A DNA stretch of 20,000 bases from the IMG/VR virus record IMGVR_UViG_3300037067_004188; one strand, given 5' to 3'. A program made the translations under genes and the position numbers. Below are positions 2,602 through 11,151 of the stretch, one piece after another (the first letter of the stretch is position 1; every line of letters starts with the position of its first letter). Source of the stretch: an uncultured virus (IMG/VR IMGVR_UViG_3300037067_004188) (lineage: Duplodnaviria > Heunggongvirae > Uroviricota > Caudoviricetes). A model generated the notes under the pieces. That model was given only the letters and a program-made list of their open reading frames with translations, was not told the origin of the DNA and did not search any database.

Positions 2602-4071
2602 TCACCATAACTCAGGCTGATACACCGTTGACGCTATACGTCTCTCTGCCATCTTCACGTAGTCGGCATTGCTGTCTATCAGAACGTAATGCCTGCCCAT
2701 TGCCTTTGCCTGAACTGCCGTACTTCCCGATCCCCCGAATGGATCCAATATTACTCCTACATGATAAGTCGGATTTTCACAATCACAAGTCGTCAATCCA
2801 TTATTAACGTATTCGTAAGAATCAATATAGGGTGTGCTATTTTGTCCTATTGATGATTTCTTTGAACCACCGCCAGCACAAACTTTATCCCCACACCCAT
2901 AAATTTTCTCTCTTGGTAAACCACAGGTATCGCATATCTGAAAGGGAACACTGGTATCAATTACCCTTTCGGCTAAATCAGTACAGAATACTGCGAAGTG
3001 ACTATCATGTAATCCCCTGGTGGAAATAGACCACACTGCTCTGCAATTTCGCATAGGATTATTAGTATTTCTGACTTTCTCTGCATACCTTCGTTGTTTC
3101 TCTATGGAATATCCAGCGTGTATGCTAGTTGCCTTTTCGGAATTAAATTCATTATTTGCTCTGATAATACTGGAATCCTGTTGTGGCTCGAATTGCTGAT
3201 TGAAGTAATAATCTCTGCCTTGCCAATTAGACTTCTTCTTCTTACCTGTATTGCCACAAACTCTACATCCCGCTCCTTGACACTGACGACAATCATCCCA
3301 ATCCCAATCTATACCCTCTATGCCCTTTATACCCAATGGCTTTTTGGAAACCATCCGCTTCGTCTTGGTATTCTTCCACCAAAGAGTCTTACTATTTTTA
3401 CAGACAAAAAAGATAGGCTCATAATCTATGGTAAAACGGTCAGTAGCACTCTCAGGGCAGGCGTTAGGCTTCTGCCACACAATTTTATTGCGAACTATCC
3501 AGCCAGCGTCTATCATGGCTAATTCTAACCTTGCAGGTATGCCTATCAACGATTTGGCATTGACACCCATGACGTTCCTTGCCCTGCCACACTGTATGCC
3601 ATTCTTGCCATTATACTTGTTCTTATCAAATGTTTGGTTGCCCTTCGAGGCATGTGAGTCATCTATATTTATCCATAAACTGCCCGATGGCTTTAATACC
3701 CGCATACATTCTGTGAATACTTGCATGAGATGCGCTATATACAAATCTGGATGAGATTCTTGACCCAAGTTTCCTTTCCATGCCCCACATTTAGAACAAC
3801 TTTCTTGATTTTGACGGGATATGGAAAATATGTCTTTATTTCGATTATTTCCAGTATTAGCACCAAGACCACGATAACGAAGATTGTCTATATCAGCAAC
3901 TATGTTTTGCCATTCATGGCAGCAGGAATTATCCCCATCCCATACAATCGGCTCAATGCCATAGTCCCTTGCGAAGTAATATGGGGGCGAGGTGAATACG
4001 CTGTCAAAATAACCATCTGGAAAGCCACCTAAAATGTCCAATGCGTGTCCTTGATACACACTGTCTACCAT
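2602..4071 (-). CDS. Orphan beta-class amino-DNA methyltransferase (N4-mC/N6-mA family) with Cys-rich insertions
   Basis: N-terminal catalytic motif IV FTSPPYY, RVLKPSGSLWINI, HFAVF, and C-terminal SAM-binding motif ILDPFGGSGST. Confidence 0.93.
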   Translation of the reverse strand: MVDSVYQGHALDILGGFPDGYFDSVFTSPPYYFARDYGIEPIVWDGDNSCCHEWQNIVADIDNLRYRGLGANTGNNRNKDIFSISRQNQESCSKCGAWKGNLGQESHPDLYIAHLMQVFTECMRVLKPSGSLWINIDDSHASKGNQTFDKNKYNGKNGIQCGRARNVMGVNAKSLIGIPARLELAMIDAGWIVRNKIVWQKPNACPESATDRFTIDYEPIFFVCKNSKTLWWKNTKTKRMVSKKPLGIKGIEGIDWDWDDCRQCQGAGCRVCGNTGKKKKSNWQGRDYYFNQQFEPQQDSSIIRANNEFNSEKATSIHAGYSIEKQRRYAEKVRNTNNPMRNCRAVWSISTRGLHDSHFAVFCTDLAERVIDTSVPFQICDTCGLPREKIYGCGDKVCAGGGSKKSSIGQNSTPYIDSYEYVNNGLTTCDCENPTYHVGVILDPFGGSGSTAVQAKAMGRHYVLIDSNADYVKMAERRIASTVYQPELW

Positions 4072-4341: not shown

Positions 4342-5025
4342 TTATTGTTCATCTGGAATCAATAATTTGTCTATTCTATCACGATCTTGCTTGAAAATCA
4401 CTTCATAATCCTTTGACCAAGTCCCATCCTGTTTGGATATAAACGTACCATTCTTCCAACGTGATTCTAAATCTGCCCAATTTACACCTTTCTGATGTAA
4501 CATCTCGTGTATATCAGGAGTCTGCTTATTCTTCATCTGTTTCGCAGAATAATAAACTCTTGCTAACATTTGTAAAGAATTTCGTATCCAATCCGTCTGC
4601 CTCCAGATAAAATAATTGCATACCTCCTCCCTGGGTATATTAAATACCCTAGAATCAAAATATGCACGCTTGCCAAATTTCTCGGTAAATGACACTGAAC
4701 ATACTGAACTGGAAATGGACACCATCTTCTGAATATTATAATCAAACCATGCGTCAGTATTGAACTTCTCATAATCAATTATCAAAATACTGATCTCATC
4801 CGATTGAATATAGGCACATTTAGACCCCTGGACTTCTTTCATTACCTCCAAAGAGGCAAAGTGCATACAATCATTCAGGTTTTTATCAAATGGCTTTTCA
4901 CAGCCCCTAGTCAATGTATGAAACGCCTTGCCATCCAATCGTAGTATAACTGGCGTTCTTCGCATTAAGGACGACTGCGACCTGATCTCATAATTATCCT
5001 TCATCCTGTCCGATAATGATACCAT
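4342..5025 (-). CDS. tRNA(His) guanylyltransferase Thg1-like protein (3'-5' nucleotidyltransferase)
   Basis: Motifs RLDGKAFH, YIQSDEIS, FDSR, YFIWRQxDxxRNS. AAGGAGG RBS at ~5037-5043 puts the start at ATG 5025 (or GTG 5031), not 5103. Confidence 0.93.
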   Translation of the reverse strand: MVSLSDRMKDNYEIRSQSSLMRRTPVILRLDGKAFHTLTRGCEKPFDKNLNDCMHFASLEVMKEVQGSKCAYIQSDEISILIIDYEKFNTDAWFDYNIQKMVSISSSVCSVSFTEKFGKRAYFDSRVFNIPREEVCNYFIWRQTDWIRNSLQMLARVYYSAKQMKNKQTPDIHEMLHQKGVNWADLESRWKNGTFISKQDGTWSKDYEVIFKQDRDRIDKLLIPDEQ

Positions 5026-5045
5026 TTTCACTCTAACCTCCTTTA

Positions 5046-5258
5046 TTAACAAATAACACTGCCATTCTTTTTTATGATCTCTAAGTCCTTTGGCGGTATC
5101 CAATCATACCGACCATCATCGGTCTTGATAATATACCACCCCACAGGCGCATTTAAGGTGCATAATATCAGATTATCGGAAGGTTTTACCTCCCAAAACT
5201 TCTTAATATCACTCCAATTATTACCAGTATAAAGTAAATAGTCTACCATTTTTGCCAT
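5046..5258 (-). CDS. Hypothetical phage protein
   Basis: AAGGA RBS; YTGNN...VGWYIIKTDDG; operon context. Confidence 0.7.
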   Translation of the reverse strand: MAKMVDYLLYTGNNWSDIKKFWEVKPSDNLILCTLNAPVGWYIIKTDDGRYDWIPPKDLEIIKKNGSVIC

Positions 5259-6998: not shown

Positions 6999-7027
6999 TT
7001 GACAAAAACTTAATATGGGTTTATACT
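6999..7027 (+). promoter_or_regulatory. Strong rightward (early-type) promoter
   Basis: TTGACA-N17-TATACT preceded by an A/T-rich UP-like tract. Confidence 0.85.
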
Positions 7028-7104
7028 GGTTAATAGTGCAAGGGAGCAGACACGGACAAGCTGGATCAGTAGACACACTCACTCACACAGAAGGAGATAA
7101 GGGA

Positions 7105-7287
7105 ATGAATAGCATGTATGATTATCAAGGTTATGAGGCTTTATTAGTGTGGTTAATGAGTATAGGGATAAATGACTGGTTAGAAATAGTATCTCTCATA
7201 GGAGGAGAGGTAGAAGTAGCGGAGTCATGTTTCAGATTGAAAATAAGCGGGTGCAATTCCCGCTCTCACAACAGGTATACTTGCTAA
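7105..7287 (+). CDS. Small hypothetical protein
   Basis: AAGGAG RBS at ~7091 supports ATG 7105 rather than 7015, which lies inside the promoter. Confidence 0.55.
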   Translation: MNSMYDYQGYEALLVWLMSIGINDWLEIVSLIGGEVEVAESCFRLKISGCNSRSHNRYTC

Positions 7288-7302
7288 TAAGGAGATTTAA
7301 TC

Positions 7303-7485
7303 ATGATATTAATAATGGTTCTATTAGTGATAGTTCCGGTGTTTTTAAATGCTTTTGGTAATAGACGACATGATAGGCTTATAAGAGTCTTGCGTCATGA
7401 GTGTATCGAGTCATGGCGTACCTCTCACAAGTTTGGTTACAAGATTTATGAGAGTTATAACTTGTCAGTAATCTATACCAGATAA
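7303..7485 (+). CDS. Small membrane-anchored protein
   Basis: AAGGAG RBS; hydrophobic N-terminus MILIMVLLVIVPVFL. Confidence 0.65.
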   Translation: MILIMVLLVIVPVFLNAFGNRRHDRLIRVLRHECIESWRTSHKFGYKIYESYNLSVIYTR

Positions 7486-7497
7486 GGAGTTTACGAC

Positions 7498-7668
7498 ATG
7501 GAATTAAAAACAAAATGGGTTTGTCCGGGTTGTAAGAAAAGGAATGTTTTAATCTCGTCTCTTGATAAGTTGGGAATCCCAACGGTCAAGAGCGGGTCAA
7601 AGTGTATTTGTGGAGTGGATCGTTATTCAGACAGATATTATCAGCTTAAATTAAAGTCAGCGAAGTAG
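7498..7668 (+). CDS. Small Zn-ribbon-like protein (56 aa)
   Basis: AAGGAG RBS; MELKTKWVCPGCKKRN...KCICG; absent from the ORF track. Confidence 0.7.
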   Translation: MELKTKWVCPGCKKRNVLISSLDKLGIPTVKSGSKCICGVDRYSDRYYQLKLKSAK

Positions 7669-7731
7669 TAATTAGGGTTGAATCTCTACCATGTCTATCA
7701 AAATAGTAGAGATTGATTAAGGGGGTTTATC

Positions 7732-7968
7732 ATGTATATATCGAAGTCACTTAGGGACGCATTTAGCGAAAAGATAGATGCTATTAATGAATTGATGAGT
7801 CATACAGTAATGAAAATAGTAATGAAGATAGAAAATAATCCAGAAAACAGCGATCAGTTTCGTATTGCTCTAGCTGGTGGTGTGTCTGAATGGATCAGTA
7901 GATCAGAGTTAGAGGACAGGACAGACAATATTTTGTTAGCATTGAGAAATGGGACAATCGAGTTATAA
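7732..7968 (+). CDS. Hypothetical protein
   Basis: GGGGG RBS; operon context. Confidence 0.7.
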   Translation: MYISKSLRDAFSEKIDAINELMSHTVMKIVMKIENNPENSDQFRIALAGGVSEWISRSELEDRTDNILLALRNGTIEL

Positions 7969-8012
7969 CAATCATAGTGCTGGCTATCACGTTAAACTGG
8001 CTGGAGGTAATC

Positions 8013-8207
8013 ATGGCAAAAGTAAAGTATTTATCAGTCAAACATCCAGAGGCAATAAAGTTGCACGATTGCCCATCATTTAGTGCGACAGGAAGCATTA
8101 AGGGCATGAAAGATAAGTTTTATGGTAGAGATGCCCTTCTGGTAAGGTCAGGGAGTTACATTTATAATGTCAGTGGTTGTCCTGAGTTATACGAATTAGC
8201 ACATTAG
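8013..8207 (+). CDS. Small hypothetical phage protein
   Basis: GGAGGT RBS supports ATG 8013; contains TGSIKGMK..FYG..ALLVRSGSYIYNV. Confidence 0.75.
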   Translation: MAKVKYLSVKHPEAIKLHDCPSFSATGSIKGMKDKFYGRDALLVRSGSYIYNVSGCPELYELAH

Positions 8208-8250
8208 TTCTAATATCCTGAGCAAGATGTAAAAAGGCTTAGGGGATAAA

Positions 8251-8487
8251 ATGATCAAAGCATCTGAACTTAGAAAAAACATTGATTTCAAAGTGTTGGC
8301 AAGAAAAGACGGTCAGTTACTTATGGATAACTATAAAGATGAAGAAGCGCAGTTATGGCAGATCAACAGGAAAAGATCGACTGGTGTTCTTGAATATGGG
8401 AATACATCTTATGAGTTTATCAGACATGCCCTAAAAGAAGATTTTGAGTTTTTTGGCGTTCTTGATATGAGACCTTTAAGGGCATAG
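8251..8487 (+). CDS. Hypothetical protein
   Basis: AGGGGA RBS; operon context. Confidence 0.7.
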   Translation: MIKASELRKNIDFKVLARKDGQLLMDNYKDEEAQLWQINRKRSTGVLEYGNTSYEFIRHALKEDFEFFGVLDMRPLRA

Positions 8488-8569
8488 TGTGACGGCGCAG
8501 TAATGCGCCTGTGCGGTATAGGCAATAACGCCCTAGTCCGACTGTAAACACAAACAAGGAGTTAAGACA

Positions 8570-8863
8570 ATGGGAAACACAAAGCTAAATCAAGTTAGTA
8601 TTGGGAATTATGGCAATTACTCAAGTGACAATTACGGTTCAAGTCGTTACGTCACAATCGGCAGTCTAACGTTATATTTTTCATATAAGACGGTGATTGC
8701 ATTTGAGAATATAAGCGGTTTAACTATATGCCAAAATGACTGGGGAACTACGACAGGCAAGCACTTAAACTCAATAAGTACAGACAAATCAAAGCGTATT
8801 CCCTATGCACAGTTTAAGGAATTGCTAGACAAGGTGTTAGAGATTCACGGCTTAGCCATATAA
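8570..8863 (+). CDS. Hypothetical phage protein (YFSYxTxIA...WxxTTGKHLN type)
   Basis: AAGGAG RBS; the motif resembles small uncharacterised phage early-region proteins as recalled, not searched. Confidence 0.75.
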   Translation: MGNTKLNQVSIGNYGNYSSDNYGSSRYVTIGSLTLYFSYKTVIAFENISGLTICQNDWGTTTGKHLNSISTDKSKRIPYAQFKELLDKVLEIHGLAI

Positions 8864-8915
8864 GACGAAACCCGCTCCGGCGGGTCGGCTGTTAATTGAC
8901 AGTCTTGATAAGTCT
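8863..8915 (+). ncRNA. Type II hammerhead ribozyme, U3-A8 core variant; predicted cleavage after GUC at C8886
   Basis: agac-GAAA-cccgc(uccg)gcggg-UC-ggcuguu(aauu)gacaguc-UUGAUAA-gucu: stems I, II and III all form, and the core matches apart from the compensatory C3U/G8A change. Confidence 0.88.
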
Positions 8916-8934
8916 GAATCAACGGAGGTGTAAC

Positions 8935-9165
8935 ATGATAGTTAAAGATTTGCAGAATTTACTTGAAAACAAGCCTGATGATATGGTTATCAAATTACTT
9001 TCATGGACTAACGATCATGATCCAGAATATAAATTTATTGATCCTGACATTTCAACACAGCTTGTATCTTTAGACATGGACACTGTAACGTCAGATAAAG
9101 ACCACGCTGATCCAGAATTTGACGATTTGTATTCAGATGAGCAAGAAGTTTTATTAATAGCATAA
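8935..9165 (+). CDS. Small acidic hypothetical protein
   Basis: GGAGGTG RBS supports ATG 8935; MIVKDLQNLLENKPDDM start and a D/E-rich C-terminus. Confidence 0.75.
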   Translation: MIVKDLQNLLENKPDDMVIKLLSWTNDHDPEYKFIDPDISTQLVSLDMDTVTSDKDHADPEFDDLYSDEQEVLLIA

Positions 9166-9177
9166 CGGAGGTGTGCA

Positions 9178-9477
9178 ATGTTTGTTTTATGGCTAAATGC
9201 AAGCGGGCATAAGGCAAAGGATATACCAGAGCTACGGCAGACCTTATTAAGTCTGAGCAGTCAGATATTTGAGAAGTGCGTAAAATCCTACATAACCGTT
9301 GAGCAGTCTGATGGTTACGTTGGTGAGCATATCTTTGACACTAAAGCTGTTCGGAACATGGTGCATACTATTTCAAAGATAGATTCAGACATGGCGACTA
9401 TTGCGGAATGTGCTGAGTTATGCAATCAGTTTGCGATACTGAGAGCAAACAATAAGGAGGAATCCAGGCAATGTTAG
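9178..9477 (+). CDS. Hypothetical protein
   Basis: GGAGGTG RBS. Confidence 0.7.
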   Translation: MFVLWLNASGHKAKDIPELRQTLLSLSSQIFEKCVKSYITVEQSDGYVGEHIFDTKAVRNMVHTISKIDSDMATIAECAELCNQFAILRANNKEESRQC

Positions 9478-9818
9478 ACAAAAAAAATTTCATTAAAAAG
9501 GTAAATGATTTGGGTTCCCTTATAGGTTTTTCGGTTGAGGACACATCAATAGAAAACTACATAAATTCTGCTATTCTAAGAAATAAAGGTACAAGACAGG
9601 AGATTCACGTTTTTAACGGTCATTATGGCAAGGAAAACAAAATCTCTATACAGGGTGAATTATCAGGAATAAAGATAAATGAGTTACTACCGTGTATCCA
9701 CATAGCCGAAACAAAAACAGCAGAGCAGATCAAGAAAGACATTGATCGTCATTTAATGCCAAGCTACATGCTTATATTAAAGAAGGCTTTAGCGGATCAG
9801 CGAAAGGTTAGCGAATGA
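9471..9818 (+). CDS. Hypothetical protein
   Basis: AAGGAGG RBS; coupled to the upstream gene. Confidence 0.7.
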   Translation: MLDKKNFIKKVNDLGSLIGFSVEDTSIENYINSAILRNKGTRQEIHVFNGHYGKENKISIQGELSGIKINELLPCIHIAETKTAEQIKKDIDRHLMPSYMLILKKALADQRKVSE

Positions 9819-10096
9819 ACGGACTAAATGAATCACTAAGAGCATGTCAAACTAATCCTTCTGAATCTAACCTTGACGTTCTTGATGGGTTATTAAAGTC
9901 AGGGCATGGGTTACGGATAACGTATAAACCAGAGCAAATGAAATATCTGGACAAGCGAAACAGTGATCGCAATTCGATTCGTAATTATTCAGGGATTAGC
10001 AAGACAAAGAGCGTCTTTTGGCTGTGTTATTGTACAGGAATGTTTTTAGAATATCGGATGATGGTTGATATTCAAGCGATAAAGGATATAAAATAA
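9815..10096 (+). CDS. Hypothetical protein
   Basis: ATGA overlap with the upstream stop. Confidence 0.65.
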   Translation: MNGLNESLRACQTNPSESNLDVLDGLLKSGHGLRITYKPEQMKYLDKRNSDRNSIRNYSGISKTKSVFWLCYCTGMFLEYRMMVDIQAIKDIK

Positions 10097-10106
10097 CAGA
10101 GGTGCA

Positions 10107-10334
10107 ATGATGACCGAAGAGACGAAACGTTTAATCAAAGAGAATGTTGAGGTATTCAAGCTAGAGGAGTTTATAAGTGTGTGCGCGTGGTGTGGCAAAT
10201 GGCGTTCAGGTGATAATTGGTTCAATGCGCCTATTCCAAAAGGTAAGAGATCGCATGGGATATGTCCAGATTGTTATAAGAAATTCAATGCTGGCGTTCC
10301 TTATGATGAGGTGACAAAAACATGGCTAAAGTAA
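10107..10334 (+). CDS. Small Zn-binding protein
   Basis: GAGGTG RBS; VCAWCGK...SHGICPDC motif. Confidence 0.75.
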   Translation: MMTEETKRLIKENVEVFKLEEFISVCAWCGKWRSGDNWFNAPIPKGKRSHGICPDCYKKFNAGVPYDEVTKTWLK

Positions 10335-10525
10335 TTTTCAATGTTGGAGATCAAGTTTATGTTGTTTCTATTGGTATGACGGCGATCGTACTGTCAAGGG
10401 CAGGCGATCAATACAGGATTAAGCGTGCAGATGGTAAGTTTGACTATGTGATGTCTAACGGTCTGGTGAGGTGTAAAAATGAATCACAGACACAGAAAAT
10501 CAACGAGGAGGCAGCGCAGGCGTAA
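10322..10525 (+). CDS. Small SH3/KOW-like beta-barrel protein
   Basis: GAGGTG RBS; FNVGDQVYV...AIVL...YRIKRADG pattern. Confidence 0.6.
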   Translation: MAKVIFNVGDQVYVVSIGMTAIVLSRAGDQYRIKRADGKFDYVMSNGLVRCKNESQTQKINEEAAQA

Positions 10526-10625
10526 GGTCAGGCGTTCCCTTCCCCTTATGCTTGCATGGGTAACAATCTTTATAGAGTGCTGGAAGCGTAATAACAGGCA
10601 GAGATGCCGAAAGGTCAGAAAATAG
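10479..10625 (+). CDS. Arginine-rich small peptide (48 aa)
   Basis: GAGGTG RBS just upstream; MNHRHRKSTRRQRRRKVRRSLPLMLAWVTIFIECWKRNNRQRCRKVRK; ends just before the cassette B promoter. Confidence 0.5.
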   Translation: MNHRHRKSTRRQRRRKVRRSLPLMLAWVTIFIECWKRNNRQRCRKVRK

Positions 10626-10628
10626 CCC

Positions 10629-10658
10629 TTGACGTGGGCGTTCTCTTTGTGGTAATAT
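10629..10658 (+). promoter_or_regulatory. Sigma70-type promoter of wHTH cassette B
   Basis: TTGACG-N18-TAATAT with the same TGTGG extended -10 as cassette A. Confidence 0.6.
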
Positions 10659-10662
10659 GGAT

Positions 10663-10809
10663 GTGTCAGCGGTTGAGCATTTAGCTAGTGCTGAACCATC
10701 AAGCTGGCACAACCATTTGTGTGATGTTATGTGGGATAATCTCCCCCAGAGATAACTCCGATTGGTAGACATAGCATCACACATCCTTACTACCAAAGAG
10801 GAGAACGCC
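10663..10809 (+). ncRNA. Structured 5' leader B (candidate cis-regulatory RNA)
   Basis: Hairpin with loop ttagcta; 15-bp stem 10718-10732/10769-10783; loop ctcc-ga-ttggtag complementary to ctaccaa-aga-ggag (SD). Confidence 0.6.
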
Positions 10810-11151
10810 ATGAGACCACCAAAAAAGCACGTCAAGCAATTTCTAAGACTTTCACACGAATTAGTCAAATCAGAACGTTACAACAATTTATCACATCCAG
10901 CTATAATCATTCTAAATTATAGTATGATTTTCTATTACGACAATGATCCTTTTCATCCTTTTAGCTTGCCATATTCAGAAATAAAAAGCGTTTTGCATAT
11001 CGGCAAGACAACAATAGCGAAAGCAATCAAACAATTAATAGATGGCAAATACTGGATTTTAATTAATAAAGGTGGGCGAAATAGGTCAGCTATTTATCGC
11101 CATAACCATTCATTATTGAGCGTTTATGAAGAATCCACAAGTCCTGTTTAG
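10810..11151 (+). CDS. Small winged helix-turn-helix DNA-binding protein (paralogue B)
   Basis: GAGGAG RBS supports ATG 10810; YNNLSHPAIIILNYS..FYY...PYSEIKSVLHIGKTTIAKAIKQLIDGKYW...GGRNRSAIYRHN. Confidence 0.8.
   Translation: MRPPKKHVKQFLRLSHELVKSERYNNLSHPAIIILNYSMIFYYDNDPFHPFSLPYSEIKSVLHIGKTTIAKAIKQLIDGKYWILINKGGRNRSAIYRHNHSLLSVYEESTSPV

Follow-up and report, generated by a model that had tools for sequence, protein, structure and literature searches.

Hammerhead ribozymes of the type II permutation that are associated with phages were described in 2011, together with the natural covariation of core positions 3 and 8 to U3-A8 (PMC3088659). As set out in passages of that paper, type II hammerheads flank prophage genes, often single genes, and core bases C3 and G8 form a pair that covaries to U3-A8 in several natural hammerheads. 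The same passages list U3-A8 variants as known to be active in vitro, and some natural core variants as slow or inactive. They also describe a pseudoknot between loop I and the 3' tail in the majority of type II hammerheads, which supports fast cleavage and is not obligatory. Three type II hammerheads located near phage-like genes cleave both in vivo and in vitro, according to an excerpt of PMC8782182, and about 1,300 U3-A8 motifs are reported among the min-hammerheads of Penelope-like elements in part of PMC4209133. Separate stabilisation of the cut mRNA pieces is the standard, unproven hypothesis for phage hammerheads in the relevant passages of PMC3088659 and PMC6765202, and in the latter the biological role of hammerheads is called unresolved in reviews.

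We analysed a 20,000-nucleotide stretch of DNA from an uncultured virus of the class Caudoviricetes, the whole of which is referred to here as the window. An original prediction, made from the letters alone, had placed a type II hammerhead with a U3-A8 core between two of its small genes. We consider it roughly 80% probable, judging from the sequence, that positions 8863-8915 (+) encode a self-cleaving type II hammerhead of a compact, short-loop phage subclass, in which U3-A8 replaces C3-G8 and which cuts the transcript of an operon. Its identity as a hammerhead is supported by all defining positions, by syntenic canonical hammerheads and by independent U3-A8 examples.

A complete type II hammerhead motif occupies an intergenic gap

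Reading of the sequence, a descriptor search and the predicted fold all delimit the motif at 8863-8915 on the + strand. Every element that had been listed as part of a complete type II topology was found there, base for base, in agreement with the fold. Three helices surround the core, with stems I and III capped by loops and stem II open, which is the type II permutation, and they comprise 4 (stem II), 6 (stem III) and 7 (stem I) pairs, all 17 of them intact. The 5' strand of stem II is AGAC (8863-8866, +), in which C8866 is position 11.1, and its 3' strand is GUCU (8912-8915, +), in which G8912 is position 10.1. Both were assigned by sequence, descriptor and fold, and they pair as A8863-U8915, G8864-C8914, A8865-U8913 and C8866-G8912, the last of these being the 11.1-10.1 pair. 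Core bases G12, A13 and A14 (8867-8869) together with A15.1 form the GAAA at 8867-8870 (+), which aligns to the GAAA of the Rfam model RF02276 and of the covariance model R1 described below. Stem III (8870-8885, +; sequence and fold) is a hairpin of 6 bp, made up of A15.1-U16.1 (A8870-U8885) and CCCGC/GCGGG (8871-8875 with 8880-8884), around the loop UCCG (8876-8879). Position 17 is C8886, and the hammerhead alignment predicts cleavage between 8886 and 8887 (+). Stem I (8887-8904, +; sequence, fold and descriptor) is a hairpin of 7 pairs, 8887-8893 with 8898-8904, that has the loop AAUU and includes two G.U pairs (G8888.U8903 and U8893.G8898).

The remainder of the core, U3 U4 G5 A6 U7 A8 A9 (8905-8911, +), reads UUGAUAA and replaces CUGAUGA. 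All invariant bases are present, namely U8906, G8907, A8908 and A8911 on one side and G8867, A8868 and A8869 on the other, and they fall in the same columns in the RF02276 and R1 alignments. The pair A15.1-U16.1 (A8870-U8885), a non-G at position 17 (C8886) and the pair G10.1-C11.1 (G8912-C8866) are likewise in place. Only two departures from the hammerhead consensus are found, C3U and G8A, so the strict C3/G8 of CUGANGA is absent (U8905, A8910) and the 3-8 pair is kept, as U-A with full Watson-Crick capacity. The Watson-Crick 3-8 pair claimed at the outset can be read directly from these two bases, and the pairing of C3 with G8 in the canonical core is given in passages of PMC3088659.

The motif lies on the transcribed strand between the stop codon of one small gene and the ATG of the next, which is the intergenic context of phage hammerheads. 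The upstream ORF encodes 97 aa (8570-8863, +; from the ORF list, with no Pfam or PHROG family) and ends in TAA at 8861-8863, the final A of which (8863) also begins stem II. The downstream ORF encodes 76 aa and begins with ATG at 8935 (8935-9165, +; from the ORF list, with no known family), preceded by a Shine-Dalgarno-like GGAGG at 8924-8928 (+), and the motif thus sits in the gap between stop codon and ribosome-binding site as had been stated. Both genes belong to a run of small ORFs on the + strand, from about 7015 to 11151, in which no Pfam or PHROG assignment above threshold was obtained for any ORF. The accompanying description of the transcript as an "early" mRNA is supported by no result.

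Other genes of the window are phage-like and include an HNH endonuclease (397-909, +; phrog_1271, E 1e-15), a DNA methyltransferase of 489 aa (2602-4071, -; phrog_67, E 1e-47), a Thg1-like tRNA-His guanylyltransferase (4342-5103, -; phrog_4717, E 8e-76), an exonuclease and an excisionase-like regulator. The methyltransferase and the HNH endonuclease are ordinary phage genes, and no tRNA genes were found in the window. Terminator-like sites were seen at 7245-7265 (-) and 7193-7209 (-), within the + strand ORF 7015-7287 or at its end, and the number of such sites is at or below the shuffle level (mean 2.7). A blastn search of 8400-9400 against GenBank phages returned no match.

Across 8000-9800, the window is matched with 0 differences by contigs from two sequencing runs (X1 and X2), which belong to two studies. 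This agreement argues against assembly errors at U3 and A8, unless the window itself derives from one of the runs. The runs are a landfill metagenome and a groundwater metagenome, either of which may be its source. In contigs of two further runs (X3 and X4) the motif lies outside the coverage, and none of the runs listed was of RNA.

The motif is specific and falls below the curated Rfam threshold

The descriptor consisted of GAAA, a stem III hairpin closed by A-U, a non-G at position 17, a stem I hairpin, NUGANNA and complementarity of the stem II strands, and it accepted C-G or U-A at positions 3-8. Within the window, on both strands, it matched 8863-8915 only, and on 5.8 Mb of first-order Markov sequence, both strands, it gave 0 matches even with loose stem lengths. 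Across 596 Gb of genomes from bacteria and archaea, a bare core-motif pattern with UUGAUAAG had 33 matches, and three helices were present in 0/33. A chance origin of the motif is excluded in practice.

These counts bear on the alternative of a chance resemblance, in which two intergenic hairpins act as an attenuator or terminator, or as a site for a protein or an RNase, and hammerhead-like letters happen to lie beside them. Stem III is indeed a GC-rich hairpin of the terminator kind, the minus strand has a T-rich run after stem III as well as a weak Trp_leader match (15.4 bits, E 0.93), and in IMG/VR the stem III pattern also has many matches outside hammerheads. However, a terminator scan of both strands gave no site at the motif, the coding strand has no U-run after the hairpin, and there is no nearby gene on the minus strand. 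The absence of descriptor matches in simulated sequence and of helices among the genome matches argues against it in the same way, and the hammerheads found in synteny in two relatives (L158 and L159, below) are inexplicable by chance. We regard this explanation as very improbable indeed.

Rfam at gathering thresholds reports no match in the window, which bears out the expectation that consensus searches miss U3-A8 variants. A search restricted to 8800-8990 (191 nt, 4227 families) aligned Hammerhead_II (RF02276) end to end, from model position 1 to 66, at 17.6 bits (E 0.26). The model search that had been suggested as a check therefore delivered the full-length alignment but not the gathering score, which is 37 bits for RF02276. 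In a scan of the whole window with E up to 5, the motif was absent from the matches, and no other ribozyme was reported either. The Hammerhead_II cut-off is not diagnostic for hammerheads of the short-loop kind, because members with a canonical core also score below 37. When RF02276 was run on ten loci with canonical-core short-loop hammerheads (L051, L055, L095, L104, L129, L021, L076, L154, L158 and L159), nine scored 24.2-34.4 bits and L076 gave no match at E<=1, and gathering-level Rfam scans of loci with canonical short-loop hammerheads were empty.

The covariance model R1, which we trained on 23 canonical hammerheads of phages and on no sequence from the window, gives 8863-8927 a score of 48.2 bits (rough E 6e-15), with a runner-up in the window at 9.1 bits. 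The value for the motif is inflated because the training set was picked via the window's own stem III pattern. Four loci with unrelated stem III sequences (L252, L244, L237 and L154) score 42.5-52.6 bits, the first three alone covering 42.5-50.4 bits. With filters off, R1 found no second ribozyme in the window. Among 15 sequences outside the R1 training set, 12 of the 17 pairs change on both sides, and the covariation score is 0.676, compared with 0.137 in shuffles (0/500 reach 0.676) and 0.05-0.10 in slid controls. The share of 98.8% paired positions in these 15 sequences arises partly by construction, because 10 of them had been preselected for intact helices.

Canonical hammerheads accompany some relatives of the upstream gene

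Searches with the upstream ORF gave relatives in IMG/VR (19, with 42-55% identity, one of them a 17-residue fragment) and in metagenomes (96, the best 80 of which were used), and relatives of the downstream ORF 8935-9165 were not found in IMG/VR. At the 19 IMG/VR relatives no hammerhead was detected by Rfam gathering, by the descriptor or by R1. Over the combined 99 upstream-gene loci (264 kb; the 19 from IMG/VR and the best 80 of 96 from metagenomes), R1 gave four matches at E<=1, in L150, L158, L159 and L154. The first, L150, is identical to the window across 3291 bases. In L158 and L159, whose proteins have 51-52% identity, a canonical CUGAUGA type II hammerhead starts 1-2 nt past the stop of the homologue and is followed on its 3' side by an RBS-like stretch and then an ATG. 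In L154 (57% identity) a canonical CUGAAGA hammerhead lies 5' of the homologue and begins right after a TAA. Stem III varies from CCCGC/GCGGG in the window to GGGGC/GCCCC in L158 and ACCCC/GGGGU in L154, and the stems differ throughout. The other 95 of the 99 loci had no R1 match, so the association between gene and hammerhead is sporadic, as has been described for prophage hammerheads.

Within L158:281-345 and L159:416-485, the upstream gene, the hammerhead (except for an insertion in loop I) and the next 8 nt (AUAAC...) are common to both loci. Downstream of the shared 8 nt, the two continue into unrelated genes. This divergence 8 nt past the hammerhead implies that the ribozyme occupies a mosaic junction, where it remains linked to the upstream gene.

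An arrangement of this kind could also be expected if an active hammerhead served some purpose other than splitting a transcript, whether setting the 5' end of the downstream mRNA for translation control, marking the boundary of a recombination module, or releasing a small RNA through paired cleavage with a second ribozyme. Such purposes fit the gene, hammerhead and 8 nt shared ahead of unrelated genes in L158 and L159, as well as the position of all U3-A8 and most canonical examples within about 10-30 nt of a start codon that follows a purine-rich, RBS-like stretch, and the reviews covered in part of PMC6765202 leave room for them. On the other hand, a second ribozyme was not found in the window, either by Rfam with E up to 5 or by R1 with filters off, and no result separates the other roles from simple processing. 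Taken as a replacement for simple processing, they seem to us improbable.

A short-loop subclass of phage hammerheads is common in IMG/VR

The stem III pattern CGAAACCCGC N3-8 GCGGGTC occurs at at least 129 loci in IMG/VR. When the descriptor was applied to 229 loci, 60 distinct matches were obtained; among the matches listed, 55 have the canonical CUGANGA core, and the remaining five are L150, the copy of the window, and four with long loops and poor geometry, which are taken as chance. Many of the canonical matches share one architecture, in which stem II has 4 bp, stem III has 6 bp and a tetraloop, and stem I has 6 bp and is closed by U...G, and the stem III sequence of the window recurs in many canonical phage hammerheads. 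A ribosome-binding site and an ATG stand within about 10-25 nt on the 3' side of the canonical short-loop examples. Because even these canonical-core members score below the Hammerhead_II gathering threshold, routine annotation would miss the subclass. An exact 29-mer of the motif had 0 matches in IMG/VR.

Another group of sites that match the stem III pattern resembles type I, with stem I open (L149, L024-L026, L035, L042-L048 and others). The site in L149:301-390 (-) reads CTGATGA-GGCT-TTAAT-AGCC-GAAAC-CCGC-GCAA-GCGG-GTC, is flanked by GAACAA/TTGTTC and has a ribosome-binding site and an ATG directly on its 3' side. Three of the type I-like sites lie on one 7.6-kb contig (L024-L026), and L149, the one site for which the sequence covered reaches the core, has CUGAUGA. 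This locus was also the sole match in IMG/VR to a pattern that combined U3-A8 with the stem III of the window, and it was rejected as such, because it is a canonical hammerhead of type I, downstream of which TTGAAAA occurs by chance.

The C3/A8 mismatch was not found with intact helices in the phage census

For a census of U3-A8 cores, a fixed short-loop pattern was scanned over IMG/VR. All three helices were present in 6 of the 26 matches, which correspond to 3 distinct sequences (L237=L246=L247, L244=L254 and L252), all with UUGAUAA. Each of L237, L244 and L252 occupies a gap just upstream of an ATG, with a purine-rich, RBS-like stretch before the ATG. They share the whole architecture of the window motif along with its heptamer, but their stems are unrelated to it in sequence and they are therefore independent members and not copies. 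Natural U3-A8 variants, the existence of which had been asserted and is described in passages of PMC3088659, are represented among the IMG/VR matches to the short-loop pattern by these three sequences.

The corresponding pattern with a U3.G8 wobble had all helices in 9 of 28 matches, or 7 distinct sequences. These (L256, L257/L269, L260, L262/L280, L267, L270 and L281) have a UUGA(U/C)GA core and perfect helices, and by the same pattern U3.G8 type II hammerheads are at least as frequent as U3-A8. With a C3/A8 mismatch, intact helices were found in 0 of 8 matches in IMG/VR, the nearest of which, L285, also has a broken stem III. The occurrence of U-A and U.G with intact helices, and of none with C/A, is the pattern expected under selection on the 3-8 pair. 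It suggests that the pair may have changed along a route from C-G through U.G to U-A.

Folding is consistent with a hammerhead and gives no signal of a loop I-tail pseudoknot

The minimum free energy fold of 8855-8925 (71 nt) is exactly the hammerhead three-way junction, at -22 kcal/mol and z -2.3. In a context of 201 nt, stems I and III are kept and the 4-bp stem II is lost to other pairings in both the minimum free energy and the centroid folds. This displacement is a caveat for the thermodynamic prediction and is not unusual for hammerheads, in which stem II often has just two pairs according to passages of PMC3088659. The best run of complementarity between loop I and the 3' tail is 4 pairs, UUGA 8896-8899 with UCAA 8920-8923, and it is equalled by 48% of shuffled tails. 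Among 33 short-loop hammerheads, no pseudoknot signal above shuffles was found (mean best run 3.36 vs 3.32 in shuffles), so the subclass would have either another tertiary contact or none.

On these grounds a decayed or very slow hammerhead deserves consideration, one that retains the fold of a canonical ancestor and, with its U3-A8 pair and no contact between loop I and tail, cleaves too slowly to matter, its hairpins serving as a passive exonuclease barrier or as a spacer between genes. It agrees with the missing pseudoknot signal in the window motif, with a stem II of just 4 bp that is not kept in the 201-nt fold, with an Rfam score 7-17 bits under those of canonical relatives, and with the slow or inactive natural core variants reported in PMC3088659. 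Decay, however, would not be expected to leave just two core changes that exactly preserve the pair, and all 17 of 17 helix pairs intact. The canonical members of the subclass have no more pseudoknot signal than the window motif does. Three unrelated phage UUGAUAA hammerheads with perfect helices, set beside the 0 of 8 for C3/A8, argue further against it, because the recurrence of this heptamer and the absence of C3/A8 with intact helices point to selection on the 3-8 pair and not to decay. We consider this explanation unlikely, though less so than the two set out above.

Proposed processing of the operon transcript

If the motif is a self-cleaving hammerhead, as we prefer, it would be transcribed within the rightward run of small genes and should fold as soon as synthesis reaches base 8915, with the backbone then broken after C8886, on the 5' side of G8887. 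Upstream of the cut, the RNA would carry a 2',3'-cyclic phosphate and terminate in the GC-rich hairpin of stem III. The piece on the downstream side would open with the stem I hairpin, its 5'-OH end lying 37 nt ahead of the GGAGG that precedes the next gene. The two mRNA pieces that result would be stable, or be translated, independently of each other. That the polycistronic mRNA is divided into pieces with separate stability, as the original prediction had it, is plausible and is the standard hypothesis for phage hammerheads.

The observations can be drawn together in one broader reading, which we offer tentatively and consider possible at best. It would recognise a phage type II subclass that lacks the pseudoknot, has 4 bp in stem II and 6 bp, closed by U...G, in stem I, and is systematically missed by curated thresholds; its 3-8 pair would be C-G, U.G or U-A and never a mismatch. 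The identity of the pair might tune the speed of cleavage and so set how much mRNA of the flanking genes stays joined relative to what is separated, and the ribozyme, as the edge of a recombination module, might move together with the upstream gene.

In the present case, a reading of the sequence without tools recovered a real hammerhead motif that the Rfam cut-off misses. Phage genomes are probably richer in hammerheads than annotated, because the Hammerhead_II gathering score was reached by none of the short-loop examples scanned, whether their core was canonical or variant. The census adds natural evidence of selection on the 3-8 pair, in that U-A and U.G occur with intact helices and C/A without. 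The known chemistry of hammerheads is unchanged by the window motif.

Comparison with described hammerheads

The min-hammerheads of Penelope-like elements, as described in part of PMC4209133, have the same compensatory core pair as the window motif, but they are eukaryotic and are minimal forms of type I. The type II hammerheads of RF02276 (Perreault et al. 2011, PMC3088659) have the same permutation, with stems I and III capped and stem II open, and they share with the window U4, G5, A6 and A9, G12, A13 and A14, A15.1-U16.1, C17 and G10.1-C11.1. In the passages of PMC3088659 that describe their setting they lie, as does the window motif, on the coding strand in short gaps between phage genes. 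The window motif differs from them in having U3-A8 for C3-G8, in its score of 17.6 bits against the gathering value of 37, and in having no detectable pseudoknot between loop I and the tail.

Compared with the canonical short-loop phage hammerheads, the window motif has the core UUGAUAA instead of CUGA(U/C/A)GA, a loop I that is one base longer, and a G instead of the usual A as the base after stem II. Members such as L051, L055, L129 and L154 have the 4-bp stem II and the 6-bp, tetraloop-capped stem III of the window motif, and in L129 stem III and its loop are identical to those of the window, CCCGC-UCCG-GCGGG.
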